Below, one piece after another: positions 2,131-61,766 of a DNA stretch of 64,000 nucleotides (positions are counted from its first letter, which is position 1; each line of letters opens with the position of its first letter). This DNA comes from Centroscyllium fabricii (Eukaryota). The DNA lies in NCBI GenBank assembly GCA_051313645.2, contig JBNRSN020000009.1, forward strand, positions 97,464,001 through 97,528,000. Reading direction: 5' to 3'. Position numbers and translations under genes: made by a program. Below the pieces are notes generated by a model, which saw only the letters and a program-made list of their open reading frames with translations, made no database searches and was not told where the DNA came from.

Positions 2131-3308
2131 CTAAAAATAGATATAAACAGTGAAAATAATTCTAACACCACTGTAGGCTTTTTCTTAAACCTATTTTGCC
2201 TTGGCTACCAGCATCATTTCTTTCCTGTTCTAATCGCCATTTTGGTGACTTGAAGAATCCCCCTTTAAACAGGGAATACCACCACCTTTGGGGAGTTTAT
2301 AGCACAGCTGGTACAATAACAGTGGTCTTTTCTGTAACTATTCGATTTACTTTAAATCTTAAACCAGGAAATGGAAGAATAGAAAACAAGCTCTGCGGGA
2401 GAGCACTGCAATTCTTTGACTCATAAACCAGGTGTGCCCAGAATGAACTTTGGGAGGAGGGACTGGAGTGAGCATCAGTCGGGTGGGGGGTGAAGTCGGA
2501 GGGAGCGCTCCTTCCCTTCCTGCCTCCACATAAACTATTTTTTTAATTTAACGTTTAGTTGGCAGCCACAGGAGTCACTGATAAATCCTGTCGTCTGCCC
2601 CGCTCATTGGTAACAAATTTTGTAGAGGGGTCATTCAGCAGGTGTTAAGGCCCCTAAGTAACATATTCAATGGGCCTAATGTCTGTTTTAGGTGCTACCT
2701 GGGGCACGCCAGGGAATATGACTGATCTTGGAATTCAACTGAAACGTCATGTGCCATGCCACATAGTAAACACCGTTTTATGCAGCTGTCTTTTAAATAA
2801 TTAAGCAGCTATCAAAAAAAAATTAAACGACAGAGGCAACAAATATATTTGAATTTTTATAACCACATGACTGAATGAGCCAAAGACCAGCCTTCCCCAA
2901 TTTTTGCAGAACAAAACCTGGACTCTCAAACAGCATAGCCAAGAATTGATAAGTTGTGTTAAGACTACATGGTGTCAACTGAATGTGAAATAGGTTTCTC
3001 CTAGAAGACACCAGCTAACACTGATAAAAACATTCTCAGGACATTGAGTTAAGCCAAGTAGCTCGAGCAGTTGAGTGCTAAGACTGCCATCCAAAGTGCC
3101 TGGAATTTAATTACAGCTTTGGCTGACATCTGATCTGGCCTATCCTTACTCTATATAGAAGTTTTATTAATTCTTGTCTGAGCTGGCAGAAAGAACACTT
3201 TGCAGTAACTGAGCATACCAGTATAAAGAGAAGTGGGCAAGCCTCAGCCGACAGGAGTCCACCTCCTGCAGGTTGCTCGAGGAGATGGTAGCAGCATGTT
3301 TGGCGGTA

Positions 3309-3628
3309 CAGGTGGAGCATTGGTAATCCGGCGCCCTCGGGACCAGGCCGGTACCGCACCACTGAAAATTACGAAGCACTGAAGGTTCAGGGGGAGCACG
3401 CAGGTAGAACACTCCCCGGGGTCCGGAGCGCGCGGGTAGAACACTACCCGGGAGGGAGCCCGGGGATAGAACACTCACAAGCCCTAAAAAACCAGAAACC
3501 CAAACGCCCGATGCCTTCGGCGCTCGCTCACCCTTCACGGGGAAACGACACCGCCGCCAAGCGCCGGCTCGTGCCGGGCCACTGAAGGTGCCAGACCATC
3601 GGGTGCCAGATTACCGGTGCTCAACCTG
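3309..3628. mobile_element. Tc1/mariner (pogo/Tigger-like) MITE, family A copy 1
   Basis: TIRs caggt(t/g)gagca..ggtaatccggc / gccagattaccggtgctcaacctg; TA on both flanks; near-identical copies at 35387-35705 and 42593-42917. Confidence 0.9.
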
Positions 3629-3864
3629 TAGTGGAAAGGAAAATTAATGCCTTCCAATCAGCCAATTGAATCGTTGGAATCTAATGTGAATTAACGGTTA
3701 CCATATCTCATAGTATTATGGTAGCCAGAGATTTAAGTTACAATCTTTAGTGTGCCAAAGCCTTGCAGCACCCTGAGCATTGTTTTAGCCAGTTTATGCA
3801 ATGCTGCAAATAATTGTTTCACATCCTAAGTGTCAATGGGTCAATTTAATTTGTCTTTTACATT

Positions 3865-4175: not shown

Positions 4176-4344
4176 CTATATGCCTTTAAATGAATTGCTG
4201 GTGTCACTTCATGCCACCATGCTGGAATTTCATTTGGGAGGAAATTACTTCACACAGTACATTGCAAATTCAGATGCTATCTCCTTCTGGGATGGAAAGA
4301 TCATGGCAAACATTCTTTTTAAACATAAGTCATTAAGGAACTTC

Positions 4345-4540
4345 GAAATAACAACAGAAAACGCTGGAGAAACTCAGCAGGTCAGGCAGCATCGATGGAG
4401 AGAGAAACAGAGTTAACGTTTCAGGTCAAAGACCTTTCGTCAGAACTGGAAAAAACAGGAGAGGGGATCAATTTTAAAACAAGTGGGGGCTGGGGAAAGG
4501 GGGAGGGGGTGGAAGAACAAAAGGGAAGATCAGCGACAGG
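4345..4540 (-). mobile_element. Penelope-like element terminal (pLTR) fragment, family P1
   Basis: gaaataacaacagaaaacgctggagaaactcagcaggtcaggcagcatc shared with 31981-32209 and 49959-50079; carries a hammerhead motif. Confidence 0.8.
4411..4447 (-). ncRNA. Minimal type I hammerhead ribozyme (Penelope-associated)
   Basis: Minus strand reads agtt-CTGACGA-aaggtc ttt gacct-GAAA-cgtt-aact: core boxes, stem I, stem II and palindromic AACGTT at stem III. Confidence 0.75.
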
Positions 4541-5599: not shown

Positions 5600-6674
5600 G
5601 GGGGGGGGATTTTCATGTCCCCGTGAGGCGGGATTTTGGGCAGCTGGGAGGTGAAAATAGAAAAATTTGGGCCCCGCCAGCCCGCCGGTTTTGCATTTTA
5701 GGACGGCCACTTTCCCCGCCCCGAATCCTTCCCACCGGCAGTGATGGTTGTTGAGGTTGTTAAGGGCCCTTAATTGGCATCTGTCCTGCCATTTTAAGGG
5801 CCCGTAGCCATTTTTAGCCGTTTCCCACCCATTTTCCGTCACCTTAAACCCCGCTGGGTGAAACCCAGCGGGAGCACAGCGCTGTTCATTACTTTCTCCT
5901 TCAAGGTCCTGAGGACATGCTGCAAACTGCTTGGCATGCCTCCAGCACCTTAGAGGATTAATTAATCCGTGGTGAGTGCACCAGCTGTGGGCAAAAAATG
6001 AGAAATCTCAGCTTTGCACATTTCTTCACAGCCGGTGCTGAGCTGTCAAGGATTCGGAGCCTGCCCGCCCACCTGTCAGTCACCAGCACTTGACCGTTCC
6101 CATTGGTTCCACTCGACTGTGATGTCACAGTGGAGTGTTTCCATGGGAGCTGTCAACAACCAGTGCTGGAACTGTCAATCAAGCTGCTCGATTGTATAGT
6201 TGTTAGCACTATTGCCTCACAGCGCTAGGGGCCTGGGTTCAAATCCGGCCTCGGGTGACTATCTGTGTGGAGTTTGCACATTCTCCCAGTGTCTGCATGG
6301 GTTTCCTCCGGGTGCGCCGGTTTCCTCCCACAGTCCAAAGATGTGCGGGTTAGGTTGATTGGCCATGATAAATTGACCCTTAGTGTTAGGGGGATTAAAT
6401 AAGTGGGGTTACGGGGATAGGATGGGATGTGTGTCGGTGCAGGCTCGATGGGCCGAAATGGCCTCTATCTGCACTGTAGGGATTCTATGATTCTATGATC
6501 CCCGCTGGAGCCCCGACTCGATTGATTCAATTACCACCCACTGCCGCAGGCGGGGATTTAATAACTCAATTAAATGAAAATTGCGTGGGGTTCCCAGGTC
6601 TTTGGCCAGGCGGGACAGGAACCTGCCCCGACCAATCCCCGCCAGGTTCCCGCACTTCCGGCAAAATTCCCCCC
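5600..6674. mobile_element. PIF/Harbinger-type non-autonomous element (MITE) inserted in L2
   Basis: TIR ggggggatttt / aaaattcccccc; 3-bp TSD TCA (5597-5599, 6675-6677); internal TGACAG/CTGTCA repeats. Confidence 0.75.
6196..6498 (+). mobile_element. HE1 V-SINE (short-tail variant)
   Basis: tRNA head with B box (gggttcaaatcc), V-domain tgtgtggagtttgcacattctccc, CR1-type tail ending gattctatgattctatga. Confidence 0.92.
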
Positions 6675-7329
6675 TCAGGGTGGGGCATGGGGGGGGATTG
6701 CAAAAAATTAAGATTTTAAAGGAGAGGTGAGAGGGATAGAATGCAGTGAGGTACCTGAAGGAGGAGTAGGTGCTGCGGGGGGGGGGGGGGGGGGGGGGTA
6801 GGAGGAGAGACCAAGGTGTGACTTAGTGATTAGGACCACACCACCACTGCGGTAGTTTGGGTGGGGCAGGTGGTGGAAAGTATAGCAATGTAATGAGGCT
6901 TCAGTAAGGAACAAAGTGTTGGCACCCGTGAGCTAAGTTTCAGTTAAAGCCAGGATGCCGATGCAATCATCCACAATTCGGTTGTGGATGGCAAGGGTAT
7001 TATGGAGAGTAAACGGACATTCTGGAGAAAAATGTGGAGCAGAGTGGGGATTGCTCCACTGACAGGGTCTAAGGGTGTAGTGGTGGGTGGGGTGCAAACG
7101 AGGTTGGCAAAGTTTGCCCCAAACAGCCACATTGGGCAGGAAATTGCCAATGCAGGAGGATGGAGCAATTAGGCTCGCTACTCAGAAGAAGCCACGAAGG
7201 ATTTCTTGATGGTCAGCTCAGGGAATCCTAAGAAAGGCACAGTGGGTAACTGTGGGCTTATTCAAGGAGAATTCAAGTCTGGGGTGGCAGCTGAAGAGTA
7301 GGAAAGCAGTAGATAGTGAGGAGTTATAG

Positions 7330-8721
7330 TCAATTCAATTCAAGTATTATTGTCATTGCAGAGTACGAGTACAATACAACAAAATGAAGACTCGCCGCTC
7401 CCGAGAGTAGTGCAAATAATTTACATACAATTACAACTAGGGGGATCAAGGGATAGGGCGAGAAAGCAGGAATGGGGTACTGATGTAGCATGTTCAGCCA
7501 TGAACGTGTTGAATGGCGGTGCAGACTCGAAGGGCCGAATGGTCTACTCCAGCACCTATTTTCTATGTATCTATGTATACAGTAAAGTACATTTTCAGGT
7601 GTGCAGGTACCGAAGTTTTTTGTTAGAGTTCAGGAGGCTGACAGCCCTGGGGAAGAAGCTGTTCTTGAATCTAGTTGTGCGGGTGCGAATTGATCTGTAG
7701 CGACTCCCAGAGGGCAGGGGGACGAACAGACTATGGCTGGGGTGTGTGGGGTCTTTAATAATGTGCAGAGACCTCCGTAGGCAGCGTTTGAGGTAGATGC
7801 TTTCAATTGACGGTAGCTGTGTGCCAGTGATTCGTTGGGCAGTTTTGACTACCCGCTGCAGGGCCTTCCGGTCCGAGATAGTGCAATTTCCATACCAGAC
7901 TGTGATGCAGCTTGTCAGTATGCTTTCGATTGTGCAGCGGTAGAAGTTGAGAGGATGCCGGATGACAGCTTGGCTTTTTTCAGCTTCCTTAGGAAGTACA
8001 GGCGCTGTTGGGCCTTCTTAATCCGAGAGGAGGTGTTTAGTGACCAGGAGAGGACGTCCGAGATGTGGACCCCGAGGAACTTGAAGCTGGACACCCTTTC
8101 CACCTCAGCCCCTTGGATGAAGATGGGGGTGTGTCTTCTGCTTTCAGTCCTCCGGAAGTCCACTATGATCTCCTTAGTTTTCTTGGTGTTCAGGGCGGTT
8201 GTCGTTCAGGCACGTCACGGCCGTTTTCTTGGGCACAGGGATGATGGTGGCGGTCTTGAAGCAGGTAGGGACAGCTGCCTTAGCCAGTATCAGGTTGAAG
8301 ATGTCAGTGAAGACCTCAGCCAGTTGGTCGGCATATTCTTTGAGTGCCCAGCCGGGGATGCCGTCAGGACCCGCGGCCTTCCGTGCATTCACTCCACGGA
8401 GAGCACCTCTTACGTCGGAGGAGGACAGTGTTAGTGGCTGGTCTTCCAGAGATTGCAGGACTTTGGTGGCTGGCTCCCTGTTGTCCCTGTCAAAGCGAGC
8501 GTAGAAGTTGTTCAGTTCCTCTGGTAGGGAGGCATCGCTGGTCGGGGGACTGGTGTTTTTGCACTTGTAGTCCGTGATGGACTGTATGCCTTGCCACATA
8601 TGCCGAGGGTCCGAGTTGTTGTGGAAGTGTTCCTCTACCTTCAGTGTCTGATTTCGTTTGGCAGACCTGATACCCCTCTTTAGGTTGGCCCTGGCTGTGC
8701 TGTAAGCCGCCACATCCCCAG
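7330..8721 (-). mobile_element. Rex1/Babar LINE, 5'-truncated with internal deletion
   Basis: ORF pieces KAAGPDGIPG, CFKTATIIPVPKK and KKAQQRLYFLRKLKK; (TTGAA)n tail; collinear with 27422-29497. Confidence 0.9.
7433..7576 (+). mobile_element. CR1 3' tail nested in the Rex1 3'UTR
   Basis: Closely matches the reverse complement of 13384-13525; ends in ctatgtatctatg. Confidence 0.85.
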
Positions 8722-9277
8722 TGGAGATTGGAGTAGCAAAGCATCCAAGAGGGGAGAAATGAAAGGTCGCATGACTGGAAGGGGAGGAGACAGGAAAGAG
8801 GGGTCAAGAGAAATAAGGAGATAGTAGGAATGGGGTATGGTTCAGAACAGCATCCAAAATGCACTTGCAAATGGACAAGCAGTGCTCTATGCATTTCATT
8901 TAAACCAGATATACTTTGTAGAAATATATTACACTACTAATAACTCTCCCATGGTGTTGCAGTGAGTCAGAGGTTACACTGTTTAATTACAATAGGAATG
9001 TTTTTGCCATGGCGGGGATAACGTTAGATTTACAGTGACTAAGTATATCAAATTCCATTTTTATTACATGGTATTGCAGGATTTTTATTGGTGGCTTGGC
9101 GATCAAATTTTATGGCTCTGTCCATTATTCTGTGAAAACCATAAATGAGTGGCTTTTATTTCACACATTTATTCCTTCAACAATTATATTCTAATTTTTA
9201 TCCCTTACCAGTTTTAAAATTAAGAATACACGACAAGTTGGTATGCAGGGTGTACCAGTTGGAGTTAGATAACTGGT

Positions 9278-10557: not shown

Positions 10558-11415
10558 TTTTTTTAAATTAATTCACGGAATGTGGACATCACTGACAAGG
10601 CCAGCATTTATTGCCCATCCCTAATTGCCCTTGAGAAGGTGGTGGTGAGTCGCCTCATTGAACTGCTGCAGTCCGTCTGGTGAAGGTACTCCCACAGTGC
10701 CGTTAGGTAGAGAGTTCCAGGATTTTGACCCAGCGACGATGAAGGAACGGCGATATATTTCTAAGTCAGGATGGTGTGTGACTTGGAGGGGAACTTGAGG
10801 TGGTGGTGTTCCTATGCGCCTGCTGCCCTTGCCTTTCTAGGCAGCAGAGGTCACGGGTTTGGGAGGTGCTGTCAAAGAATCCTGGGCAAGTTACTGCAGT
10901 GCATCTTGTAGATGGTACACTCTGCATCCACAATGCGCCAGTGGTGGAGGGAGCAAATGTTTAAGATGGCGGATGAGGTGCAAATCAAGTGGTTTGCTTT
11001 GTCCTGGATGGTGTTGAGCTTCTTGGGTGTTGTTGGAGCTGCACTCATCCAGGCAAGTGGAGAGTATTCCATCACACTCCTTACTTGTGCCTTGTAGATG
11101 GTGGAAAGGCTTTGGTGAGTCAGGAGGTGAGACACTCGCCACAGAATAACCAGCCTCTGACCTGCTCTTGTAGCCACAGTATTTATGTGGTTGGTCCTGT
11201 TAAGTTTCTGGTCAATGGTGACCCCCAGGATGTTGATGGTGGAGGATCCAATGATGGTAATGCCATTGAATGTCAAGGGGAGGTGGTTCGATTTTCTCTT
11301 GTTGGAGAAGGTCATTGCCTGGTACTTGTGTGGCGTGAATGTTATTTGCCACTTAATCAGCCCATGCCTGGATGTTGTCCAGGTCTTGCTGCATGCGGAC
11401 ACGGACTGCTTCATT
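10558..11415 (-). mobile_element. CR1-clade LINE 3' fragment (lineage distinct from HER1)
   Basis: ORF2 C-terminus WQITFTPHK...TIYKAQVRSVMEYSPLAW followed by 3'UTR and an A-rich end. Confidence 0.85.
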
Positions 11416-13383: not shown

Positions 13384-14152
13384 CATAGAAACATAGAAAA
13401 TAGGTGCAGGAGTAGACCATTCGGTCCTTCGAGCCTGCATCGCCATTTAATGCGTTCATGGCTGAACATGCTACCTCAGTACCCCATTCCTGCTTTCTCG
13501 CCATACCCTTTGATCCCCCTAGTTGTGAGTATTATATCTAACTCCCTTTTGAATATATTTAGCGAACTGGCCTCAACAACCTTCTGTGGCAGAGAATTCC
13601 ACAGATTCACCACTCTCTGGGTGAAGAAGTTCCTCCTCATCTCAGTCTTAAATGGCCTCCCCTTTATCCTTAGACTGTGACCCCTGGTTCTAGTCTTCCC
13701 TAACATTGGAAACATTCTGCCCGCATCTAACTTCTCTAAACCAGTCAGGATTTTAAACGTCTCTATAAGATCCCCCCTCATTCTTCTGAACTCCAGAGGA
13801 TACAAGTTCAGTTGATCCAGTCTTTCTTGATATGTCAGTCTGGCCATCCCAGGAATCAATCTAGTGAACCTTCGCTGCACTCCCTCAATAGCAAGAATGT
13901 CCTTCCTCAAGTTAGGAGACCAAAACTGCACACAATACTCCAGGTGTGGCCTCACCAAGGCCCTGTACAACTGTAGCATCACCTCCCTACTCCTGTACTC
14001 AAATCCCCTTGCTATGAAGGCCATCATGCCATTTGCTTTCTTGACCGCCTGCTGCACTTGCATTCCCACCTTCAGTGACTGATGTACCATGATGCCCAGG
14101 TCTCGTTGCACCTCCCCTTTCCCTAATCTGCCACCATTCAGATAATAGTCTG
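13384..14152 (-). mobile_element. CR1 (HER1-type) LINE, young 5'-truncated copy
   Basis: Uninterrupted ORF2 C-terminus (LYRALVRPHLEYCVQFWSP...RTRGHSLRI...FFTQRVVNLWNSLP); tail ctatgtttctatg; tagcat on both flanks. Confidence 0.95.
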
Positions 14153-14756
14153 ATAGCATGTGTGTTTCAGATCTAAAGAACAATGTAACACAGGGAAACG
14201 ATTAACAGTTCACATCAATAAATATTTTCTTATACATTATATATGGAATTTGTCTGTGATCTACAGCAAATTATTTTCTACTGAGGCGAAATAATGAAAT
14301 CACATTCTTCTGTGAATATCATTCATCACTGCACTGAAACGGGAACAGTACCAAAAAAAAACTTAGCAACACTGAAACTCTCTTGATGATGGCAAGCAGG
14401 TGTGTAGCTAGCAATCTGAAGTTTTGTCTCAACCCTGGCTTCGGATCCCTGGGATTCAGGTGCGCATATACCAATCTTGCAGACGGATCGGTTTGTGCAA
14501 CTGCGTATAAATTAATTTCAGCAATGGAAAGAAAGGGAGCTTCCTATCCTAAATGGCACAAACTAAATATGACGCATGAGCAAAGTCATTGCTCCCTCCA
14601 TGTTGCTGAAATAAATATGTGCACAACTGCATGCATTACCTGTACCCTCCTACGCCCATTAATGTAAGAAACACTGCAACACATAAAACTCTCGAGCCTC
14701 AAAAATTACAAAGGAACACCAGAGCTCCTCCCCTAAGGGAAACATTGGCGCTTCAC

Positions 14757-21074: not shown

Positions 21075-21512
21075 TGGTTAGGGTTCAGTTGTGATTGCTG
21101 CCAAAGCTGAATAGCTTGTTGACACTCACTAGCTAGATTCACACTAAGAACAACCCTTTGCGTGAGGTATCAGAGCACCCATGGAACTACACCAGAACCC
21201 TGTTCCTGGGACTAGGGACAGGGCCACTGGCAAGGCTTGGAAGCTAAGCAGAGCCAGGCCTGGTTAGTACTTGGATGGGGGAATACCAGGTGCCGAAGGT
21301 CACGAAAGGAGCCCCGGGGAGGGACGGTTGGCTGAAGATTGTCGGAATGATGGGAAGATGGAATGGCGGCGCGCACAGACGCAGCGGCTTTGCTGGACTC
21401 TTGGGAGCTTGCAAGATCACATTTCGTTGTTCATGTACTTGTACATTGTATAATGACAATAAAGTTGAATTATTATTATTATTATTATTATGATTTGCCT
21501 TCAGGAGAGGTG
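21075..21512 (+). mobile_element. Old SINE-like repeat (family X) 3' part, split by the 5S-derived SINE
   Basis: gaatagcttgttgacactcact...cccatggaactac [insertion] ttgccttcaggagagg. Confidence 0.6.
21196..21490 (+). mobile_element. 5S rRNA-derived SINE (SINE3-type) with Rex1/Babar-like 3' tail
   Basis: 21239-21293 matches 5S rRNA ~nt 47-111 (ggaagctaagcag..ggcctggttagtacttggatggg[~10-nt gap]gaatacc.ggtgc); tail tcgttgt..gtact.gtac..aatgacaataaagttgaa(tta)n matches the Rex1 tail at 61708-61766. Confidence 0.75.
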
Positions 21513-21965
21513 GACAGTCCATATTACGCAGGTCTCATTGCAATGGCTCGGCTGTAAATATACCAACCAGCAAGTTAGACCCAGAAAGATCCCATATTTA
21601 ATAATCAGCTGACCTCAGCAGTAACTTTGGCCAGAGATACTTGCTTTTGATTGCTGTCATCCATGCTGTAAAGTGCCCGTATTGATAGTATGAATATTGA
21701 ATTTGCCTAGGATGAGCCTGACAATCCAATGCCATGTCATGGTTTAGGTTCCTACATGAATGGCCACTTTGGCCAAGTACCAGAGACCTGCTGGTGCCAT
21801 GGAACTACAGGTTGAGCACCGTTATACCGGCACGGGCGGGTCTAGGCCCACGCCGGTAGAACGAAAAAAACGGTAGACTGAAGCCGGCCAGTGCGCATGC
21901 GCGCACCATTCAAAATGGGCGCGCGCATGCGCACAACATTGGAAATGGCCGCCGAACATTCAAAA

Positions 21966-22557: not shown

Positions 22558-22653
22558 GCAATTTGTGCCGGAAGACTGAAGTTGCCGGCTTTTTGGTTAC
22601 CGGATTAACGGTGCTCAACCTGTATAACCATGCATGAGTCACTACTCCCAGGA

Positions 22654-26200: not shown

Positions 26201-27421
26201 TATGAATTCTCAAATCCCTAATGCATAACTGACATTGGAGCTTTTTTTTTAGGTGCAGAGAAAACGCGTTCACTCCCTTTTCCAAAACAAAACAAAGCAA
26301 AGTGTAACATGAAATGTCTGCAAAATATATTCATTCAGGTAATAATATCTTTTCGAATTAGCTTAGGCTGCACAATATGAAAGGGGAGCGGTGAATTTCA
26401 GGTTGGCTGCAGGGTTAGTGATACACAAGTATGACTCCCACATCTGGTGCATGCTGACACAGAGCTGTGTGTGCTAACAGCGCACTGTGCGCAGTGCCTG
26501 AATGATCGCAGTCTTTTGGTGACATGCTTGAGAAAGGGCACAGAGGCACCTTCCTAGTTTGTCCTTCTGACTTATACCCCATTTACACTTGTCAACTTGA
26601 CAGAACCAACCCCATATCCACATTGGTGTATTTTTGGCACCGAGTATAAACTCTGCAAATTCTGAGTTTCAAAGTCACCCCACTTCAGGGGTAGGTGTCA
26701 TGCTAACAGCAATTCAGAGGCGGTACAGTGTAAACTGTCAATGAATTTCAAGCTGACAGCTACATCCAAGGAACCTCCACCTTCAGTGAATCGTCACACT
26801 GTAGGGACAAACAGCCATTATCTGTGCACATATGGTCACAATGCAGGTGCATTAATGAAGGTCGGACAGAGAGCAACAGTGGAGGTTCCGAGTACATGAA
26901 AAAGGCCAAGTCTGTTGATGTTAGAAGCATATTTTCTGATACGATTGGCAGTCTTACTCAGCATAAATGCAGTATGTGAGACAGCTGAACAAAGCTTAAT
27001 AACTTCCCTTTTAGAAATAATCGAAATCACATTTGTTATGTTTTAATTTATTTTTCAGTCACCCAATGCTTTGGGGTTAAAAATACATTAATAATTTGCC
27101 TGTATAAAAGACAGCCTTATATCACAGCACTGCTCACAGAAGCTTGTCCTCCATTTTGCATGTGGGAAAGCAGCATGGCACTGCCCAATCGAACATATTT
27201 AAATTATTCACTAATGTCATGAAAACAGAGCACATAACACAGCAAGTGTGCACGGATTGTGTAAGTCTATTAAGCAAGAATGGACATGCATGTGGACTGT
27301 CTTCCAAAACTGAGAATGGGCTCAACAGGATGAGACCAAAGGCAGAGTCTGTTACTCTAACTTAAGCAGGTAGCTGTTAGCATTCTAAAGCAACTTGAAG
27401 ATTTTTTTTAAATGCTGCTTT

Positions 27422-29497
27422 AATTCAATTCAATTCAGTTTTGTTGTCATTGCAGTGTACTAGTACAATACAACGAAACGTAGATTTGCCGCTCCCGAGA
27501 GTAGTGCAAATAGGTTACATAACATGGGTTGCATACAATAAAGTGCATGCGGATAATGGAGTTTTTTGTTAGAGTTCAGGAGGCTGACAGCCCTGGGGAA
27601 GAAGCTGTTCTTGAATCTGGTCGTGCGGGTGCGGATTGATCTGTAGCGTCTCCCGGAGGGCAGGGGGTGAACAGACTATGGCTGGGGTGTGTGGGGTCTT
27701 TAATAATGTTCTGAGACCTCCGTAGGCAGCGTTTCAGGTAGGTGCTTTCAATTGATGGTAGCTGGGTGCTGGTGATTCGTTGGTCAGTTTTGACTACCCG
27801 CTGCAGGGCCTTCTGGTCCGAGATGGTGCAGTTTCCATACCAGACTGTGATGCAGTTTGTCAGTATGCTTTCAATTGTGCAGCGGTAGAAGTTGGAGAGG
27901 ATGCCGGATGTCAGCTTGGCCTTTACAGGCGCTCTTGGGCCTTCTTTATCAGAGAGGAGGTGTTTAGTGACCAGGAGAGGTCTTCTGAGATGTGGACCCC
28001 GAGGAACTTGAAGCTGGACACCCTTTCCACCTCAGCCCCTTGGATGAAGATGGGGGGGGGGGGCCTTCCGCCTTTAGTCTTCTGGAAGTCCACTATGATC
28101 TCCTTAGTTTTCTTGGTGTTCAGTGCCAGGTTGTTGTCGGCACACCATCCCACAAGGCGCTGGATCTCATGCCTATAGGCTGACTCATCGTTGTTGGCGA
28201 TCTGACCAACCACCGTGGTGTCGTCCGCAAACTTGATGATCTTCTTGGAGCCGTGGACAGCCGCACAGTCGTGGATAAAGAGGGAGTAGAGGAGGGGGCT
28301 CAGCACACAGCCTTGTGGGGCCCCCGTGTTCAGGGTAAGGGGTGGGGGGAGGTGAGGTTGCCTAACTTCACAGACTGTGGTCTGTTGGTTAGGAAGTCCA
28401 GGGTCCAGTTGCAGAGGGAGGTGTTCAGGCCAAGGGTGAGGAGTTTGGTAGACAGCTTGCTGGGGATGACAGTGCTGAATGCTGAGCTGTAGTCGATGAA
28501 CAGCATTCTGATATAGGTTTCTTTGCTATCCAGGTGGTTTAGTGCAGAGTGAAGAGCTGTTGTGATTGCATCTTCCGTTGATCGGTTTCCTCAATAGGCG
28601 AACTGGTATTGGTCGAGGGCGGCGGGGACGCTGGCTTTGATGTGGACCAGGACCAGCCACTCAAAACACTTCATGATTATGTGCGTGAGTGCGACAGGGC
28701 GGTAGACGTTCAGGCACGTCACGGCTGTTTTCTTGGGCACAGGGATGATGGTGGCGGTCTTGAAGCAGGTAGGGACAGCTGCCTTAGCCAGTAACAGGTT
28801 GAAAATGTCAGTGAAGACCTCAGCCAGTTGGTCAGCACAGTCTTTGAGTGCCCGGCCAGGGATGCCGTCAGGACCCGCGGCCTTCCGTGCATTCACTCCA
28901 CGTAGAGCACCTCTTACGTTGGAGGAGGACAGTATTAGGAGCTGGTCGTCCGGAGATGGCAAGACTTTGGTGGCTGGCTCCCTGTTGTCCCTGTCGAAGC
29001 GAGCGTAGAAGTTGTTGAGTTCCTCCGGTAGGGAGGCATCGCTGGTCGGGGGGCTGGTGTTCTTGCACTTGTAGTCCGTGATGGACTGGATGCCTTGCCA
29101 CATACGCCGAGGGTCCGAGTTGTTGCAGAAGTGTTCCTCTATCTTCAGTGCCCGATTGTGTTTGGCAGACCTGATTCCCCTCTTTAGGTTGGCCCTGGCT
29201 GCGCTGTAAGCCGCCACGTCACCAGATTTGAAAGCTGCGTCGCGTGCTTTCAGCAGTGAGTGGACCTCCCCGTTCATCCAGGGTTTCTGGTTGGGGTATG
29301 TCTTGATGGTTTTTTGGGTAGTGGCCACCTCAACGCAGCTGGTGATGTAGAATAGCACTGTGGATGCATATTCCTCGATGTCCATGTGAGCAAACATGCT
29401 CCATTCAGTGCGTTCGAAGCAGTCTTGTTGCTCTGAGACTGCCCCTTCTGGCTATACCCTAACTGTTTTGACTGGAGCTTTCACCCTTTTGATGAGC
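27422..29497 (-). mobile_element. Rex1/Babar LINE, 5'-truncated, with RT domain
   Basis: ORFs 28591-29397 and 27923-28306 (YRPVALTHIIMKCFE, LSPLLYSLF, KFADDTTVVG); nonsense codon at 28591; (TTGAA)n tail. Confidence 0.95.
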
Positions 29498-29629
29498 TAC
29501 CTTACCAAAATACTGGGCTGTTTGTATATTCCTCACCCCTCCCTCACTGCATATGGTTGAATCAAATACGACACTGCAAAAATACCCTGAATAAAGATAA
29601 ATAATGCCCAGGCAGAATTTGTAGAAAAC

Positions 29630-30040
29630 TCCATTGATGGCTTAATGGGTAAATGCACTGACCAGTGTGGTTCTCAACGAGAGAAGATTCCCAGTCTACA
29701 CTGAGTTAGCTGATTTCAGCTGCAACAATCGCGAGGGATTTAAAAATGGTTTCAGTGACTCAGGGCTAGGGAGGGAAGGCGGAGGAAAAAAAAGTCAGCT
29801 TGGAGTCATGCTCCAGATCATTATTGATTCTTGCTAGAAAGTACACGTGTATGGACATCAGGTGAGAACACAATCAAGGACAGATGTGGTACCCTCACAA
29901 TTCAACAATGTGCTGGCGCTCACTGTCTAGACTCATGCATGAGGAACGGTTGCTTGGGTGAGACACTTAAGAGTTGTCAGCACCTGTGGAACCACATCCC
30001 AGCAAGATTCACTGCCTTCAGGAGAGGGGAGAAAATGGGG
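29630..30040 (+). mobile_element. Old SINE-like repeat (family X), most complete copy
   Basis: tggcttaatgggtaaatgcactg head, ctgagttagctgatttcagc body, gccttcaggagaggggagaaaa end. Confidence 0.65.
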
Positions 30041-30105
30041 GGAAAAAAGAAAAAGAAAGTAATTGAAGACATTCAGCTGATGAGGTTTCAGTATTCATTC
30101 TGAAT

Positions 30106-30995
30106 TGAAACATAGTAACATAGAAGATAGGAGCAGGAGTAGGCCATTCAGCCCCTCGAGCCTGCTCTGCCATTTAATGAAATCATGGCTGATCATCCAA
30201 ACTCAGTACCCTGTCCCTGCCTTCTCCCCATATCCCTTGATACCTTTAGCTCTAAGAAATATATCTAACTCCTTCTTGAATATTTAGCTCTAAGAAATAT
30301 ATCTAACTCCTTCTTGAATATATTTAATGACTTGGCCTCAACTACATTCTATGGTAGAGAATTCCACAGGTTCACCACTCTCTGGGTGAAGAAATTCTTC
30401 CTCATCTCTGTCCTAAATGGCTTACCCCTTATCCTTAGACTGTGACCCCTGGTTCTGGACTCTCCGAACATCGGGAACATTCTTCGTGCATCTAGTTTGT
30501 CCAGTCCTGATAGAATTTTATAAGCTTCAATGAGATACCCTCTCATTCTTCTAAAGATGTGCAGGTTAGGTTGATTGGCTATGATAAATTGACCCTTAGT
30601 GTTAGGGGGATTGAATATGTGGGGTTACGGGGATAGGGTGGGATATGTGTCAGTGCAGGCTCGATAGGGATTGAGGGATATGGGGAGAAGGCAGGGACAG
30701 GGTACTGGGTTTGGATGATCAGCCATGATCTCATTGAATGGCGGAGCAGGCTCGAAGGGCCGAATGGCCTACTCCTGCTCCTAGTTTCTATGTTTCTGTG
30801 TTTCTATGTTTAAACTCCAGCGAGTGAGTATAAGCCCAATCGACCCAATCTCTCCTCATACGTCATTCCTGCCATCCCATGTATCATCAGCCTTGTGAAT
30901 CTTCGCTGAACTCCTTCCATGGCAAGAACATCCTTCCTCAGATAAGGCGACCAGAACTGCACACAGTACTCAAGGTGTGGGCTCACCAAGGCCCT
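30106..30995 (-). mobile_element. CR1 3' fragment split by HE1, with a 38-bp tandem duplication
   Basis: ORF pieces PHLEYCVQFWSPYLRKD and SRTRGHSLRIRG; duplication 30245-30282 / 30283-30320. Confidence 0.9.
30553..30810 (+). mobile_element. HE1 V-SINE, 5'-truncated long-tail variant
   Basis: aaagatgtgcaggttaggttgattgg body plus extended CR1 tail; flanked by taaa. Confidence 0.9.
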
Positions 30996-33300: not shown

Positions 33301-34235
33301 GGGCCAGAAATTAGGATCGGAAGGCTAGCCGCGAGTGCAAGTCTCCAAAGTGCACTCACCTGCCGTTCTCGATTTCTCGCACTTGAACTCCCGATCCTCT
33401 GGCCTGCTGAAAGCCCCCCGCGCCGCGCTGGGGCTACTGAACGTCGGAGTTAGTGCGAGGCTTCCCGCAGGATCACGTGGTCCGCGGGGAGCCAATCAGA
33501 GCAAAGAATGCTCCATTCATAAGTTCGACAGGAAGATCTGTCAAGCTTATCACAGAATCATAGAATCGCTACAGTGCAGACAGAGGCCATTTCGGCCCAT
33601 CGAGCCTGCACCGACACATATCCCACCCTATCCCCGTAACCCCACGTATTTAATCCCCATAACACTAGGGTCAATTTATCCTGGCCAATCAGCCTAACCC
33701 GCACATCTTTGGACTGTGGGAGGAAACCGGAGCACCCGGAGGAAACCCACGCAGACACGGGGAGAATGTGCAAACTCCACACAGAAAGTCACCCGAGGCC
33801 GGATTTGAACCCGGGCCCCTAGTGCTGTGAGGCAACAGTGCTAACCACTATGAAATAATATTTAACGTTTTTAACGGGCCTAAAAATCAACTTACCTGTC
33901 TTTAAAGTTTTTAAAAATGAAACACCTGTGAAAAAAATGCTTCAATTGAATAAAATAAAGACTTACCTGATGAAATCCACTCCTTGCGCTTGAAAATAGG
34001 AGCCGTAAATATTTAAATACTTACCTGATACAAACCTGCGAAAAAAATCGGAAGTTCACTGCGCACCTCCTGCTGCGCAGGCCAACGCGCTCCGGCTCCT
34101 GACCCCTTCAGGCCCTGGATCGGAAGTGCCGGTTCTGCACGCATGCGCGGTGTATGTAGGCAACCTGCACTTTGGATGGCCGCACGCCTGAGTACCCCAT
34201 CCATACTCACGCGTTGCGGGCCTAATTTCAGGGCC
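33301..34235. mobile_element. PIF/Harbinger-type MITE, family C (contains HE1)
   Basis: TIR gggccagaaattagg / cctaatttcagggcc; inverted homologue of 19970-20672. Confidence 0.85.
33550..33851 (-). mobile_element. HE1 V-SINE (short-tail variant)
   Basis: Reverse complement nearly identical to 6196-6498. Confidence 0.92.
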
Positions 34236-34946: not shown

Positions 34947-35386
34947 GTAAGCAGATCTTTCAACCTGAGGTTCATTTTGTGAGGGTAAAACCTCAGTCAA
35001 GTGCTGAAGTCGTGAGGTATAATGACGCTGGCTGAGAATGAGGGGCTGCTTTATGTCTACAGAAGCTCTGGGTTGTTGCAAATGCTTCTATTATTCTGAC
35101 TGATATAAAATGTGCTAGTAAACAAAATAAGGAGATAACTTTATGTATAGTAAGAATTGCAAGTGATTGCTCAAAATGATAGTGAATTGGAAGTACTGAG
35201 AAACTGATGAAGCATGCAAGTAGTTATTCTTGAACTTGCAATAGCAGTAGCCAATTCCTGTGCTCAGTTCAGAAGTAATTTGGGCACATCGCAACCCAAC
35301 AACTACAGTCAGAGATCTTTCGTGGTTCCACAATTTAGATGTTTTATTGTGTGAAAAAGTAAAACTGTAACCATGCCATGCTAATA

Positions 35387-35705
35387 CAGGTTGAGCACCG
35401 GCAATCCGGCACCTGATGGTCCGGCAGCTTCAGTGGTCCGGCACGATTGGAAACCGGCGCTCTTCATTTTGCGGAGCAACCGCTTGGTGGTGCCACTGTT
35501 TCCCACGAAGGGTGGGCAAGCGCCAAAGGCGTCGGTCATTTGGGTTTGTTTTTTCAGGTCTTGTAAGTATTCTATCCCCGGGCTCCCTCCTGGGGAGTGT
35601 TCTGCCGCGCGCCCCCCCGCCCCCGAAACCTTCAGTGGTTCAGAATTTTCAGTGGTCCGGCACCGGCCTGGTCCCGAGGGTGCCGGATTAATGGTGCACA
35701 ACCTG
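35387..35705. mobile_element. pogo/Tigger-like MITE, family A copy 2 (inverted)
   Basis: Same TIRs and interior as 3309-3628 in reverse; TA left flank, CA right flank. Confidence 0.88.
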
Positions 35706-35768
35706 CAGTTGTTTGAATGTCAGCAGGTATAGTTAATTTAATAGTCCTGTTGATCCTATGTACACAAT

Positions 35769-36935
35769 GGCCCAGATATTGCAGTGGAGCCTTCGTGCGG
35801 GTGCAGTACCTGCTTAACGGCGGCACGGTGGCCCAGTGGTTAGCACTGTTGTCTCACAGCACTGGAGACCCGGGTTCAAATCCAGACTCGGGTACTATCT
35901 GTGTGGAGTTTGCACATTCTCCCCGTGTCTGCGTGGGTTTCCTCCGGGTGCTCCGGTTTCCTCCCACAGTCCAAAGATGTGCGGGTTAGGTTGATTGGCC
36001 AGGATAAATTGACCCTTAGTGTTAGGGCGATTGAATATATGGGGTTATGGGGATAGGGTGGGATGTGTCGATAAGGCTCAATAGGGATCGAAGGATATGG
36101 GGAGAGGACAGGGGCGGGGTACTGGGTTTGGATGATCAGCCATGATCTCATTGAATGGCGGAGCAGGCTTGAAGGGCCGAATGGCCTACTCCTGCTCCTA
36201 TCTTCTATGTTTCTATGTTTACGCACTTTAATTGCCCATATTCAGTTTTGCTTTTTTGCACTGAGAAATTCCCGTTAGCCCAGCCTGTCAGAGCTCCATG
36301 CGAGTTTCATGGGCATCTGAAGGGCGTAATTAGTGCGAGATGGCTTTTGAGACCACGTGATTGGCAGGGAGCCAATCAGTGGAAGCAATTCTCCGTTCAA
36401 AACTTCCACAGAGAAATCTGTGTGAGTTTTGAAAAGAGAGATTCTCAAAAGACATCTAAACACAAAAATAAAATTTTACAAACACCACATTTTTTAAACA
36501 TTACCCCAACTAACACAAATAACCTATTTTAAAGAAAAAATAAAAATTTGCAGAATTTTTTTTCCACTTCCAACAGGTCTAAAAATATACTTACCTGTCT
36601 TTAAAGTTATCAACAATTAAAAACCTGAAAAAACAACAATTAAAATCAATAAAATACACACTTACCAGATGAAAACGGGTGTTAACGACTCCTTTTTTCC
36701 AGCGTTGAATTTTCTTCTCTTGGTCCGTAGAAAAAGTTAAAAAAACATCGGAAAGTCTGGGCTCTCCCGTAGTTCGCAGCTTCCTGTGCTGGACCTCGCA
36801 GGAAGCAGCGACCCCCCCGCTGGGCGGCACAGGAAATCCCGAAGCGTGCGCTCTGGCTGCTTCCTGCGGGTTTAAGCTCTGGTGCGCTTGCACCAGAGCT
36901 TAAACCCGATATGCGCTGACTGTAATTTCTGGGCC
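35769..36935. mobile_element. PIF/Harbinger-type MITE related to family C (contains HE1)
   Basis: TIR ggcccagatattgcagt / actgtaatttctgggcc; TSD AAT. Confidence 0.85.
35819..36218 (+). mobile_element. HE1 V-SINE, full-length long-tail variant
   Basis: ggcggcacggtggcccagtggttagcact head (A and B boxes), V-domain, extended CR1 tail. Confidence 0.93.
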
Positions 36936-36980: not shown

Positions 36981-37237
36981 TGTAGGAGTCGCTGAAAACA
37001 AACAGACTGCGAGATTTTCGTAGCAGCAAAGAAAAACGCCTGTTAGCTTTATTAACTCTCCGCATGGACTGAGGGACTCGGCCTCGTCACAGGGCTATGA
37101 TGTCATCACACAATCGACAACTCTTAAAGGGACCCTGCCCTGATAACCCAACCAAGTTCCGTACATAACGAGGTGCGATAACAATATTGGCTATACATAG
37201 TGAATTGTGCTCCTGTCCCTATGTGGTCTCCGCCACA
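36981..37237 (-). repeat. 3' LTR
   Basis: Direct repeat of 41074-41330; minus-strand AATAAA at 37048-37053; preceded on the minus strand by a G-rich PPT (~37238-37250). Confidence 0.95.
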
Positions 37238-37275
37238 TACGCCCCCCGAGAATTCACTAGAACTGGCAATGTCAG

Positions 37276-40200
37276 TCATTGAGGGGCCTGGATCGCACGA
37301 CCGAAACGGCTCCTTAAGTCAGGGGCGGGGACCGGGGGGGTCGCAGGAGGGTGCCCGGGCGCTCGGTGTTGGACTGAGGGTGCAAATGCCAGAGGTCGGC
37401 CCCACCGCGGGGGCTGAGCCAACCCAATGGGTTGGTCCAGATCCAGGTGGGCCAGCTTAAGACGGTCCATGGAAATGTAGTCTGGTTTACCGCTGGCATG
37501 CACCACGAAGGCCTTGTCCCCGGCTTCCAGGATGCGGAATGGTTCGTCGTAGGGTGGGTGAAGAGGTCCCCGGTGGGCGTCGTGGCGGACGAAAACATAC
37601 TCCGCCGCACGAAGGTCGGGCGGAACGTGGGACTGAGGGAGACCGTGCTGCGATGTGGGCACTGGTGCGAAAACCTTGGCATTGTCCAAGGGGGCGGACT
37701 GCTGACGGGCTGCAGACCAAGGGTCCGTGGCGCTGGGGACGAAATCCCTGGGTACCCTCAGTGGCTGCCCGTAGACAAGCTCGATGGACGAGGACTGGCG
37801 GTCCTCCTTGGGGATGGAACTGAGTCTCAGCCTGACCCACGGGAGTCTGTCGATCCAACTGTCGTCCTGGAGGCTGGCCTGGAGTGTGGCCTTCATGGAG
37901 CGATGAAACCGTTCGCACAGCCCGTTAGCCTGAGGGTAATATGCGGTGCTGCGGTGGAGCCTCAACCCGAGGCCTTGAGCGACGGTGTTCCAGAGCTCTG
38001 ACGCGAACTGGGGCCCCAGTTGGAGGAGACATCAGATGGGGCACCAAACCGGGCGACCCAAGTGTTGATGAAGGCCCGAGCCACATCGGCAGACGTTGTT
38101 GACGACAGCAGGATGGCTTTCGGCCATCGGGTGGTTCTGTTGACTGTTGTGAGGAGGTGTGTGAACCCACAGGCGGGCGGCAGGGGCCCCACCAGGTCCA
38201 CGTTAACATGGTCGAACCGCCTCTCGGGCACCGCGAAAGGCGCCAACAGGGCCTTAGTGTGGCGATGCACTTTCGAGTGCTGGCATACCACGCAGGTATT
38301 GGCCCAGTCGCGAACGTCCTTCTTGAGCCCATGCCAGGTAAACGTAGCCACCACCAGCTTCTGTGACGGCTTCCTGCCCGGGTGGGAAAGGCTATGGACG
38401 GCGTCGAAAACCTGCCGTCTCCACCCGTTCAGCACGACGGGACATGGCTGCCCAGCGGAGATGTCGCACAGGAGCATGGTGCCGGCATCATCAAATGCGA
38501 CGTCCGCTAACTGAAGGCCCGTGACAGCCATCCTGTAGGCTTGGACGTCCGGGTCGGAGGGCTGGTCGGCCGCCATGCGGGTGTAGTCGATGCCGAGGTG
38601 TATGGCGCAGGCAACGGCCTGGAAGAGACAGTTGGCGATGGGGTTGTTTTTCCCAGCCACATGCTGGATGCCCGTCGTGAACTCGGAGATGAAGGAAAGC
38701 TGGCGCTGCTGGCGGGCCAACCACGGCTCGGAAACTTTGGCCATGGCGAAGGTCAACAGCTTGTGGTCCATGAACGCCCTGAACGGGCGGGTCTCCAGCA
38801 GGAAACAGAAGTGTCGGACGGCGAGGTAGAGGCCAAGAAGCTCACGATCAAAGGTGCTTTACTTCCGCTCGTTGGGGCGGAGCTGCCGGCTGAAGAAGGT
38901 GAGTGGCTGCCAGGTGCCGCTGACCCACTGTTCATGAATGGCGCCGACAGCATAGTCTGAAGCATCAGTGGTGAGAGCGATCGTCGCATCGGGCAACGGA
39001 TGCGCCAGCATGGTCGCATTAGCCTGGGCCCTTTTCATGTCCGTGAAAGAATTGGCCATCTCCTCGGACCAGTCAACGGCGAGCTTGGCAGGCTTGCCTT
39101 TGAGGGCCTTGTAAAGGGGCCGCATAAGCTGGGCTGCCCGGGGAACGAAGCGACGATAAAAGTTCACCATGCCCCAAAACTCCTGCGGGTCCTTCACAGT
39201 GAGGAGTCGCGCAAAATCCTTCACGGCATCCACTTTCGAGGGCAGTGGCACCACCTCGTCCTTTATGATACGGTGCCTGAGAAGGTCGATCGAGGACAGC
39301 CCAAACTGGCACTTGGCTGGATTGACGATTAGGCCGTGCTGGCTGAGGCGTTCAAAGAGAGTCCGGAGGTGGGACACATGCTCCGTCCTGGAGGCGCTGG
39401 TGATGAGAATGTCATCCAGGTAGACGAACAGGAATGGCAGGTCTCGTAAAACGGCGTCCATTAGGCGTTGAAAAGCCTGAGCGGCGTTTTTAAGACTGAA
39501 TGGCATGCGGAGGAATTCGAACATCCCGAACGGGGTAATCACCGCGGGTTTCGGGAGGTCCTGTGGCCGGACAGGAACCTAGTGGTAACCCCAAACGAGG
39601 TCCACTTTAGAGAAAACAACTTTCCCGGCCAGGTGGGCGGAAAAGTCCTGGATGTGTGGAATCGGGTAGCAGTCGGGGGTCGTAGCGTCATTGAGGCGCT
39701 GGTAATCGCTGCACGGGCGTCAACCGCCACCTGGTTTTGGTGCGATGTGGAGGGGCGAGGCCCACGGACTGTTCGACCGGCAAATGATGCTGAGGCGCTC
39801 CATCGTGTCGAACTCGGCTTTAGCGACGGCAAGTTTCCCCGGGTCGAGGCGCCGAGCGCAGGCGTAGACAGGCGGACCGGTGGTCGGGATGTGGTGTTCT
39901 ACCCCGTGCTTGGTAGTGGCGGACGAGAAAGTGGGCTTCGTGAGGTCAGGGAACCCTGCGAGGAGGCTGGAAAACTCGGAGGCCGAGAGTGCGCCGGAAA
40001 ATTTCGTCATGCTGGAACCACTGAGCGAACACGGGAGCGAACTGAAAGTCTCAGCGTTGACCAGACGTTGGTTCTTGACATCCACCAAAAGGCCATTGGC
40101 GCAGAGGAAGTCAGCGCCGAGAAAGGGGGTGGACACTTTCGCTGTAACAAAGTCCCGAGCGAAACGCTGCCCACCAAAACACAGCACCACACTCCATTTA

Positions 40201-41026: not shown

Positions 41027-41061
41027 CTCGGATAAGTCTTTGGAAACGTCCAAAAGAGAAA

Positions 41062-41072: not shown

Positions 41073-41073
41073 A

Positions 41074-58421: not shown

Positions 58422-61400
58422 AGCAGTAGAATTTAAATTAAAAATAAATACTGCATTCTGATATAATCATGTAAAATGCTGAAAATATACAACTTGTTAA
58501 TAACCTAACATTAACCTGCCTTATTTCTTTTTAGAAACTGATGGACTTGCTGTGTATTTCTATTATTTTTTCTTTCAAAAGTTGAAATACCTTTTTTCTT
58601 TTGCTTTCCTTTTTATTTTTTTCTGGATTCCATTATACATTTCTTGTTTCTTTTTTATTTTTCTAATTTCTTTCTTCTACATTAATCTTCTTTCATTTTT
58701 TTCTCTTTTGTTTGTTTTATCCCCATTAGCTTCCCTGTTACATCTTTAGTTTGATTTCCCATTTGTTCCTTTAATCTGTTGCTTTATCATCACTCTCGCA
58801 GCTTCACTGCCTGATGCTTTCTCTGCGATGCTGCAGTGGTGAATGTGTTCCTATTGATCATACAGCCAACTCAAAACCAAACAGCACATGCAAATCTACC
58901 TCTTCTTTCTACCTCCAAAGAGATCAACAGTGCTTGAGGATGCAGCTATTGTATTTTTTTTTCAATTTCCAGGACTGCTCAGCAGGACAAATAGAGACTT
59001 CAGTTGGGGCCTGTTGATGGTTGTAATAGATGTAATAAGCATGGTCCTGGTGCCTAACTACACAGGCAGTTTTATATATTTTTAGCTGAACCAAACAGTA
59101 TCATGTCTAGGCATACATCTGGAGGATAAATGAAAGGAGATTGATTTCTGAGATAAAGGAGTTCAAAGATTTCTTTTTTTACTGATCAGTCGCATTCCCT
59201 AACCGGATGCCGCTCGACATATTTTCTTAGTCTAGGGTATTTGTGACAAATAAAACACGTGGATAATTGAATGTCCCTATGATCATTAGGAGTGCATTTA
59301 CATTCATCCTTAGACGCTTGTTGCAGTAGAAAATTAAAGCAAGATGAAGAAATATTCTGGAAGATGACTGGCCACTTTGTTTTTTGGGTGGTGGGGGTGC
59401 ATGGGGATAGGGTTGTATTGATCTCATCCCTAACCTAGAATCAGAACTGAAATTAAGTTTTCCCTGTTCCGATATGCAATTGGCAGGCAATTTTCCGAAT
59501 GATGACCAGGTATCAATTACTTTGTATTAGGGTATACAAAATAGGGGTTTTCATTATTTTTGTAAGTCTTAAATTTGTACAATTCACTGTCTACTATTTG
59601 ATGAACTGTGTGATATTAGAATAGAATCATTGATATGGAAAGTCTTGGGTTGAAGCGCAAATTCCTCATCACCATAAGGGAGAAATACTTTGACGTCCTT
59701 CACTATATTCTGTAAACAGATACAAGCCTCCAAGCGGATGACTAAAATCTGGGTCCTATTCTCTCACTATAAAGGATGTGAGCGCTCAGACATGGCTGAC
59801 CCAAATGCTTTCATTGATTTTAACATCAACATAAGGAAGATAAATAATTTGAAGTACTTACAGCTGAGTCTTTCTAGGTGTTTCAAACTCACTTTGTTTA
59901 AGGAGAGTTTTCTATGGTATTGTCACCAGTGACTGTGGCTCATAATACCATTAATTTCCCAGCTAAAACCAGTGACTTATCTTCAGGCAGTGCAGCAATA
60001 TGATAATTGTCCTGATGATTGGAAAGTTGGCACTGGTTCTGTTGTCTCATTAACTTCTCTTATTGTCACCCTTAAGGCATTAGGGTTTAATTCTATGATA
60101 CTAGAGGTGCAATGGAGCAGTTTTTGGCTTTAAAGCTTAGAATGTGCACAACATAACTAAGATTTGGCAGCAATGACAGTGTTAGGGAATCAGACAATGG
60201 TGTTGAATTCAATCATACTGGATGGGACAATGCTCTGAAGCTAACATTTTAGCTTCAAACCAAATGCATCAACTAAGGCTTTGGTAGTTGATTATGGCTT
60301 GAATTCTAATCTAAAATGATGAATTCAAGTTCATAATCAAATTAATAAAGCACTTTGTTACATTTCCTGAACACTAGATTGTTTGGTTTCCGTTTCCTCA
60401 TGCACTTTTTGTTGTTGATTGAGGTGAAGGAGTTAGGTTTTAGAGAACAGGCCGTTGCACCTAATGAGGGTAGTAAACATACCTCAATTAAAAATATATA
60501 TATACATATTGACAAATACAGGATTATAAAAAAATCAGCTTTATGCATGTGAAATCCAATGCAACATTAAATTTCCACTCTTCTTCCTATCAAGTGTTAA
60601 CTTCAAGACAACCTTCTATGGTCATTTCACATTTTATTACTTGGGTCTAAACAAGGACCTCCTTGTTGATTTGTGGTGTGTTAAATACCACATAAAGAAT
60701 ATCAGTAATATTTATTATTTCTTGTATTTGCAATACAGACATATAATGCAAGTTTATTTAAAAGATTTCATAAAATATGAATGTATTCAGAAAATTAGTA
60801 CTCAAATGTGGTAAACAGAACAAAGTTAAGGATCCCTTGTAGTTTGACTCATATTGTCTTCTTAAAATATGATGTCTAAATGCACCATCCACCACATGAA
60901 TATTAAAAATATTCAGACCTAGACCAAATAAGAAATATTAGAATACTATTGAACTACCCTGCATCTTCTGAGTGCTATAGGGGTTAGTATATTCTGACGT
61001 GTACCATCTATACATTTTATTCAGATATCTTTGATATTAACCTTTACTTTCAAATGCATTGTGTTAATACAACTAGGTAAATTAGTATATCTGATGGGAA
61101 AATCATTTTGCATAGTAACAGATCCAGAAAAAAAGCTTATTTTTGCTTGAACACAGCCTGCTACTCTTCTGCTAAATATGCATTGCTAATTTCACATTAC
61201 TGAACCTAAATTGAATCATTGATGAAATAAGATTTCAAGGAAAAATTACAAACACCTCATATAAGTACTGTACTATAATCAAGAACCTTATTTTGTTGTT
61301 TGTGTGCATTGTGCTACTCATTCTATTTAAATATTGTGCAAGAATTATCTCTCCATTATTAATTTAGTCATATTAATACATTCATAAATGTAAGGATGTG

Positions 61401-61456
61401 TATTATTTATTGATCGTTTATGGATATCAAAATATATTGATATGTCTATGTCTATG

Positions 61457-61766
61457 AACATTATTAAAGACCCCACACACCCCAGCCACAGTCTGTTCGC
61501 CCCTCTGCCCACCGGGAGACGCTACAGAGCAATTTGCACCCGCATGACTAGATTTCAGAACAGCTTCTTCCCCAGGGCTGTCAGCCTCCTGAACTCTAAA
61601 AAGAAACTCCGGTACCTGCACGACTGATAATGAACTTTACTGTATGCAATTTTCATGTAATTTATTTATTTTGTTTGCACTACTCTCGGGAGAGTCGAGT
61701 CTTCGTCTCGTTGTATTGTACTAGTACTCTGCAATGACAATAAAACTTGAATTGAATTGAATTGAA
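61457..61766 (+). mobile_element. Rex1/Babar LINE 3' end
   Basis: IIKDPTHPSHSLFAPLPTGRRYRAICTRMTRFQNSFFPRAV; tail aatgacaataaaac(ttgaa)n. Confidence 0.92.

Follow-up and report, generated by a model that had tools for sequence, protein, structure and literature searches.

A candidate 5S rRNA-headed SINE with a bipartite Rex1-type body in an elasmobranch genome

The window, i.e. the whole stretch of 64 kb that was analysed, is repeat-rich animal DNA with 130 N and an assembly gap at about 53.7-53.85 kb. Within it, a leader, the promoter region of a 5S rRNA gene without its terminator, a spacer, the 5' terminus of a Rex1 LINE and a Rex1-type tail follow one another in this order and run out in (TTA)7 (Table 1). 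These five modules form one block that is inserted in an older repeat. The window further contains Rex1-type LINEs, a Gypsy-type LTR retrotransposon and a MITE-like family of short inverted repeats, of which the copy from 21806 begins about 300 nt to the right of the element. A set of abundant repeats is presumably made up of HE1/HER1-like SINE/CR1 sequences, and the two LINE-like ORF fragments at 57942-58385 and 10872-11414 are taken by us to be RTE-like and CR1/L2-like, respectively. A CR1-type ORF at 13479-14201 has its best named relatives in rays and a skate (Mobula, Leucoraja, Hypanus; 78-81%), and the bamboo shark relative stands at 64%, which indicates an elasmobranch host, either a shark or a ray. 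ARAGORN found no tRNA genes in the window, and Rfam matches to SOX2OT, KCNQ1OT1, PhotoRC and miRNAs were rejected, as they lay far under the cut-offs.

Table 1. Features of the element, its flanks and the surrounding window.
Feature	Position	Strand	Basis
Left flank, older repeat	21117..21195	+	aligns to 29911-30002, 57/92 columns, 0/300 shuffles reach score
Leader replacing 5S +1..+43, 40 nt, 11-bp hairpin 21198-21223	21196..21235	+	fold; empty-site alignment
5S rRNA-derived head, +44..+117	21236..21299	+	by-eye match to stingray 5S; Rfam RF00001
Spacer, 55 nt, purine- and GC-rich	21300..21354	+	between 5S head and Rex1 start
Extreme 5' end of Rex1 LINE, including the start codon; its first nine codons, from 21363, read MAARTDAAA	21355..21389	+
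Rex1-type 3' tail, 83 nt, two predicted hairpins	21389..~21471	+	blastn, profile, shuffles
(TTA)7 terminal repeat	21470..21490	+	sequence
Right flank, older repeat resumes	21492..21514	+	aligns to 30006-30030, 22/26 columns, 4/300 shuffles reach score
5'-truncated Rex1-type LINE, relative of presumed partner	27420..29502	-	RVT_1; spans residues 326-974 of P0115
Second truncated Rex1-type LINE, interrupted	7326..8734	-	89-93% like 27 kb copy; tblastn
Third Rex1-type LINE copy, 3' end only	61394..61765	+	blastn/tblastn-type matches
Gypsy-type LTR retrotransposon, 258-bp LTRs 93% alike	36981-41331	-	RT, RNase H, integrase zinc-finger matches, broken frames
Short inverted-repeat family, TA-flanked termini, MITE-like	3307-3630, 35385-35725, 42577-42919, from 21806, 22600-22632
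Abundant repeats, 85-97% alike	4337-4447, 6196-6499, 30104-30810, 33549-33852, 35819-36219, 49004-49398
LINE-like ORF fragment, no Pfam match	57942-58385	+
LINE-like ORF fragment, no Pfam match	10872-11414	-

Both flanks of the element align to a second copy of the older repeat, where their targets lie only 3 nt apart, and therefore the roughly 295 nt from about 21196/8 to 21490/1 represent one insertion. The boundaries of the original prediction thus hold. The right-flank match is short by itself and picks up directly where the left-flank match stops. The host repeat (21117-21195 and 21492-21514, with its second copy at 29911-30030) may have come from the tail of an ancient SINE, for example SacSINE1. 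No target-site duplication was found, as no exact direct repeat longer than 4 nt joins the element edges; Rex1-type insertions often come without such duplications. No tandem array was reported at the element locus. The CpG richness that had been claimed applies to 21300-21388, where nine of the 11 CpGs of the element fall, but not to the element as a whole, in which the observed/expected ratio is 0.66 vs 0.52 for the window. As the 5S and Rex1 5' parts are near-identical to their references and the (TTA)7 is unbroken, the data suggest that this copy is fairly young.

Set by eye against the stingray 5S alignment (+44..+120; PMC3123226, supplement 1), the 5S segment is identical to class II at 59 of 64 positions and to class I at 60 of 64 (92-94%). 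With box coordinates of Xenopus as quoted in PMC6204057, box A (21242-21256) matches at 12-13 of 15 positions and the intermediate element (21259-21264) at all 6. The 5S internal control region that had been noticed from the letters at 21239-21293 lies within this segment, which spans 21236-21299. A partly deleted box C had likewise been seen and is confirmed: its remnant at 21272-21279 keeps 8 of 18 positions, the other 10 nt being lost in a gap at +88..+97 between two G runs, which the Rfam alignment shows in the same place. Once the gap is closed, +80..+90 reads 10 of 11, and this is the part of 5S that we take to hold most TFIIIA contacts. The RF00001 match scores 19.7 bits (E 0.29) in 901 nt and 20 bits (E 0.04) in 151 nt; at gathering scores Rfam returned no match in the 64 kb, the 5S segment lying below the gathering score of 38 bits. 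The +1 of 5S projects to 21193, and the insertion edge at 21196-21198 sits 3-5 nt downstream of it, in agreement with the proposal that the 5' edge falls where a type-1 Pol III start would be. The 5S terminator is absent, and the element contains no T4 run, the first one following at 21645.

The leader has no relative elsewhere within the 64-kb window. The stem-loop that had been described in it exists as an 11-bp hairpin but is not significant alone, since the 45-nt leader fails against shuffles (z -1.74; 12 of 200), whereas the head of 105 nt folds better than 199 of 200 shuffles (z -3.42). Of the five positions that differ from class II 5S, three lie at +60..+62, and two of these may, as a lead, be within a 5-bp helix with the leader; in the region 21223-21257, leader bases pair with those bases of box A in which it differs from stingray 5S. 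Positions 21223-21231 also resemble +1..+9 of 5S at 7 of 9 bases (primer sequence in PMC3123226). As a further lead, the head could represent a 5S gene with an internal deletion, beginning within flanking sequence of its own.

Between head and Rex1 part lies the spacer, for which no relative was found within the window and which probably has an origin other than a Rex1 5' UTR, because the matching Rex1 families have almost no 5' UTR. The following segment had been said to resemble Rex1/Babar 5' ends, and several comparisons now bear this out. By eye, 21363-21389 is identical at 26 of 27 positions to the starts of three consensuses from the PMC13343379 supplement, LeuEri_Rex1-9 (little skate), SolSen_Rex1-1 and ThaAma_Rex1-4, and all 17 occurrences of an 11-nt piece of the motif in that source fall in named Rex1 consensuses, within their first 11 nt. 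In the same collection, of which the first 400 letters of each consensus were searched, neither the exact 26-mer nor the feature at 21355-21362, which looks like a short doubled start, was found. At the protein level, the N-terminus of P0115, MAARTDAAA, is exactly the peptide encoded from 21363. Among the 120 relatives of the window LINE listed out of 861, MAARxxAA occurs in at least 14, always inside the first 25 residues and in none of those listed at a later position. A profile of 26 such N-termini gave 34.1 bits at 21363, compared with 10.4 bits at the next site in the window and a maximum of 17.8 bits in 40 shuffled windows. Start motif and homologues fit a donor with the Rex1/Babar layout, i.e. 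a single ORF that opens at the 5' end, Rex1 having no ORF1 (PMC13343379).

The Rex1 5' terminus is joined directly to the Rex1-type tail, so that the bipartite LINE-derived body suggested at the outset is indeed there. In blastn, this tail matched the tails of the three window LINEs at 76% (E 9e-7), 73% and, over a shorter stretch, 78%; a profile built from these LINE tails over 85 nt recovers it with E 4.3e-7, and a longer profile of LINE 3' ends with 190 positions missed it, nothing having passed the first filter. Against each of the three, none of 2000 dinucleotide shuffles reached the score (z 12.8-18.5). The claim that the 3' end matches the local Rex1 tails and ends in (TTA)n thus stands as homology to all three and as a (TTA)7 end, but it needs a qualification: the LINE tails are 88-90% alike among themselves and end in (GAATT)n, whereas the element tail is only 69-76% like them. 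Because of this distance and the different terminal repeat, the partner belongs to a different Rex1 subfamily, unless the element has diverged from it. A consensus fold of the four tails gives two hairpins with 19 pairs, none of which covaries, i.e. no pair is changed on both sides.

All three local LINE copies are 5'-truncated. The fragment at 28591-29448 has 861 homologues at E<=1e-20, and the best 120 of these are nearly all teleost proteins with RT and PF09004 where named, the top ones being up to 63% identical. Judged by the common start motif and the single-ORF layout, rather than by a tree, the local LINEs can be classed as Rex1-type. The published Rex1 forward primer (PMC3728117) has no match in the window at up to 3 mismatches; the motif that it encodes is present in the consensus of the window LINE family.

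We think it fairly probable that the element is one copy of a 5S-headed SINE of the SINE3 type, which is putatively transcribed by Pol III, has an internally deleted Rex1 as its body and is mobilised by Rex1. This is supported by its being one block with flanks that are adjacent in the second repeat copy, by a 5' edge close to the mapped 5S +1, by the absence of a T4 run and by the direct fusion of a Rex1 5' terminus to a Rex1-type tail. The promoter region of 5S is kept at 92-94% while the part upstream is replaced, and the heads of SINE3 and Ajax likewise combine a conserved promoter with a diverged upstream part (PMC10886601). Also the layout of head, LINE 5' part and LINE 3' part recurs, in CoeSINE5 and SINE-1_Pmo (PMC5786205). 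A one-off chimera, by comparison, would presumably have had to make four joins during one insertion. The SINEBase definition in PMC3531059 asks for less than 1 kb, a stretch of 60 nt or more that is no less than 60% identical to 5S, tRNA or 7SL, and at least 100 interspersed copies; with about 295 nt that are not tandem, the element is within that size, and by eye it is identical to stingray 5S in 59 of 74 columns (80%, gap counted). Outside 5S, the spacer, the Rex1 ends and the repeat together give a body of about 190 nt, which is more than a plain 5S pseudogene would have, and a LINE-shared 3' tail ending in a simple repeat is what characterizes a LINE-mobilised retroposon.

In such a pathway, a Rex1 element would probably have been reduced to its first ~30 and its last ~85 nt, and the internally deleted LINE would then have gained a small-RNA head, a route as proposed in PMC5786205. 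A master copy would be transcribed by Pol III, and the Rex1 protein would recognise the tail and copy the transcript. The box C deletion between the two G runs may be private to the present copy. Several observations weigh against the SINE reading, namely the single copy in 64 kb, the missing target-site duplication, a box C short of 10 of 18 nt, a tail only 69-76% like the local Rex1 tails with another terminal repeat and no covarying pair, a leader hairpin that is not significant alone, a right-flank match reached by 4 of 300 shuffles, and low-power searches that gave no second copy. Within the 64-kb window, head and body find only themselves. However, this single copy decides nothing, because even a family of 10,000 copies in a genome assumed to be 3-6 Gb would leave such a window without a second copy 81-90% of the time. 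Among the searches with little power, the exact 26-nt pattern had no match in contigs of bacteria and archaea, and two translated body reading frames had none in protein collections. One record came from plasmids and 10 from phages, with E 0.3-0.9, which is chance level.

As alternative to the SINE, the mobile unit could be a bipartite Rex1 derivative of about 135 nt (21355-21490), which acquired 5S, leader and spacer on a single occasion, either through a template switch during the present insertion or because something had already inserted at this site. We consider this unlikely but worth keeping in mind, as only a single copy is seen, box C is damaged, the 5S match starts abruptly at +44 with near-identity, and template-switch chimeras of LINEs with small RNAs are documented (PMC4494074). 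However, the 5S part ends at +117, a 55-nt spacer precedes Rex1 and the leader is foreign, which demands several extra joins, and the 5' edge is close to the Pol III start. Still less probable, in our view, is a wholly one-off rearrangement, in which a 5S pseudogene fragment lies beside an ordinary Rex1 insertion whose 3-kb interior was later deleted at the locus. By eye, Rex1 5' ends and tail starts are alike near the junction (PMC13343379), which could favour a deletion, and no second bipartite copy occurs in the window. But this scenario requires a full-length Rex1 insertion, where each of the local copies is 5'-truncated, and the deletion must have spared only both termini, and this inside a block with an edge that agrees with a Pol III start. 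Finally, it is very improbable that the 5S segment stems from a Cassandra- or Ajax-like terminal repeat or from a functional 5S gene variant: Ajax does retain only the 5S promoter region (PMC10886601), but Cassandra and Ajax TRIMs have two terminal repeats and a 4-5 bp target-site duplication and the element has neither of these nor TG...CA ends, the segment is under the Rfam cut-off and without 5' half and terminator, and the LINE-type tail together with the missing duplication largely excludes both origins.

The SINE reading places the element next to several known families. A 5S-derived head followed by LINE-derived parts is likewise found in CoeSINE5 of the coelacanth and SINE-1_Pmo of the python, both annotated as 5S - RTE5' - RTE3' (PMC5786205), in HaSE3 of a moth and in Ped-1 of the springhare, which has a 5S head and BovB as partner (PMC3747384). 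These four use RTE parts, whereas the element uses Rex1, of which it has the very 5' end, start codon included; outside 5S, the sequences of CoeSINE5 and SINE-1_Pmo are, by eye, unlike it (PMC5786205). SINE3 of the zebrafish, AmnSINE1 and OS-SINE1 are vertebrate families with a 5S head as well, but they are DeuSINEs with tails of the CR1-4_DR type or, in OS-SINE1, of its partner RSg-1 (PMC3747384). Compared with the DeuSINEs, the element has only 55 unassigned nt separating its head from its Rex1 parts. Among the partners of these families, RSg-1 is probably L2-like. Vertebrate SINE3 families are described as being moved by the CR1 clade (PMC7245038), with RTE-partnered exceptions (PMC5786205). 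A Rex1 partner does not flatly contradict this description, because Rex1 is a distinct lineage within the wider CR1 group of Repbase (PMC13343379), in which it is also the element that is most often horizontally transferred.

A SINE-Rex1 pair is described in the covered part of PMC3747384 only once, at its sole occurrence of the word "rex1": SINE2-5_NV and Rex1-24_NV of a sea anemone, where a tRNA-headed SINE of a cnidarian host has only the tail in common with its LINE, unlike the present 5S-headed element with both Rex1 ends. The known SINEs of cartilaginous fish, HE1, SacSINE1 and the CmiSINEs, share the type of host but have tRNA heads and CR1- or L2-type tails (PMC3747384, PMC5499810). 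5S-derived SINEs make up 2.3% of the first SINEBase release (PMC10946416), and the table of rDNA-derived elements, as covered from the same source, is without cartilaginous fish. The body resembles RTE-N, Bov-A, RIME and the Vingi and R2 derivatives, which likewise retain nothing of a LINE but its two ends. According to the 2018 survey in PMC5786205, such bipartite non-autonomous LINEs are reported from RTE, Ingi, Vingi and R2 only; "rex1" has no occurrence in its text and supplement as covered, and the survey leaves open why only four LINE clades yield these derivatives.

In the parts of the open literature that were searched, neither a 5S/Rex1 SINE nor a bipartite Rex1 was found, and within that scope the description of the element as undescribed is correct; the family may already be catalogued in Repbase, Dfam or SINEBase. 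Only tentatively, and with less confidence than for the SINE as such, we propose that the element represents a SINE3 family of elasmobranchs that is uncatalogued, fairly young and mobilised by Rex1, which would make it the first 5S SINE of a cartilaginous fish, the first 5S/Rex1 pair and the first bipartite Rex1 derivative.

5S-derived SINEs are rare, and the element extends a known design rather than pointing to a new mechanism. If the reading is true, Rex1 would be the fifth LINE clade with bipartite derivatives, beside RTE, Ingi, Vingi and R2. Such derivatives may then be typical of LINEs with a single ORF in which either end has to carry a cis signal, because Rex1 is without ORF1 and the RTE, Ingi, Vingi and R2 LINEs are not known to have one. 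The Rex1 case would thereby test the missing ORF1 as common cause of bipartite derivatives, and it would suggest that the minimal cis signals of Rex1 lie in its first ~30 and its last ~85 nt. The bipartite Rex1 part would be notable even if the 5S head were a one-off.

Fish-type Rex1 LINE sequence was also encountered in eight prokaryotic assemblies of GTDB (L001-L008; 8 of 51 candidates were fetched), where it most likely represents eukaryotic contamination. The element head has no convincing match in these eight (best 1 of 60 shuffles). Of four tails from them that were compared with the element, that of L001 is marginal (7 of 500 shuffles), and those of L002, L004 and L005 are not significant. 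The Rex1 locus of L002 is nearly full length, and the start of its ORF agrees with the element at 22 of 28 positions, a score that is reached by 10 of 500 shuffles when the comparison is confined to the 400 nt at the 5' end and by 39 of 200 over the whole locus.
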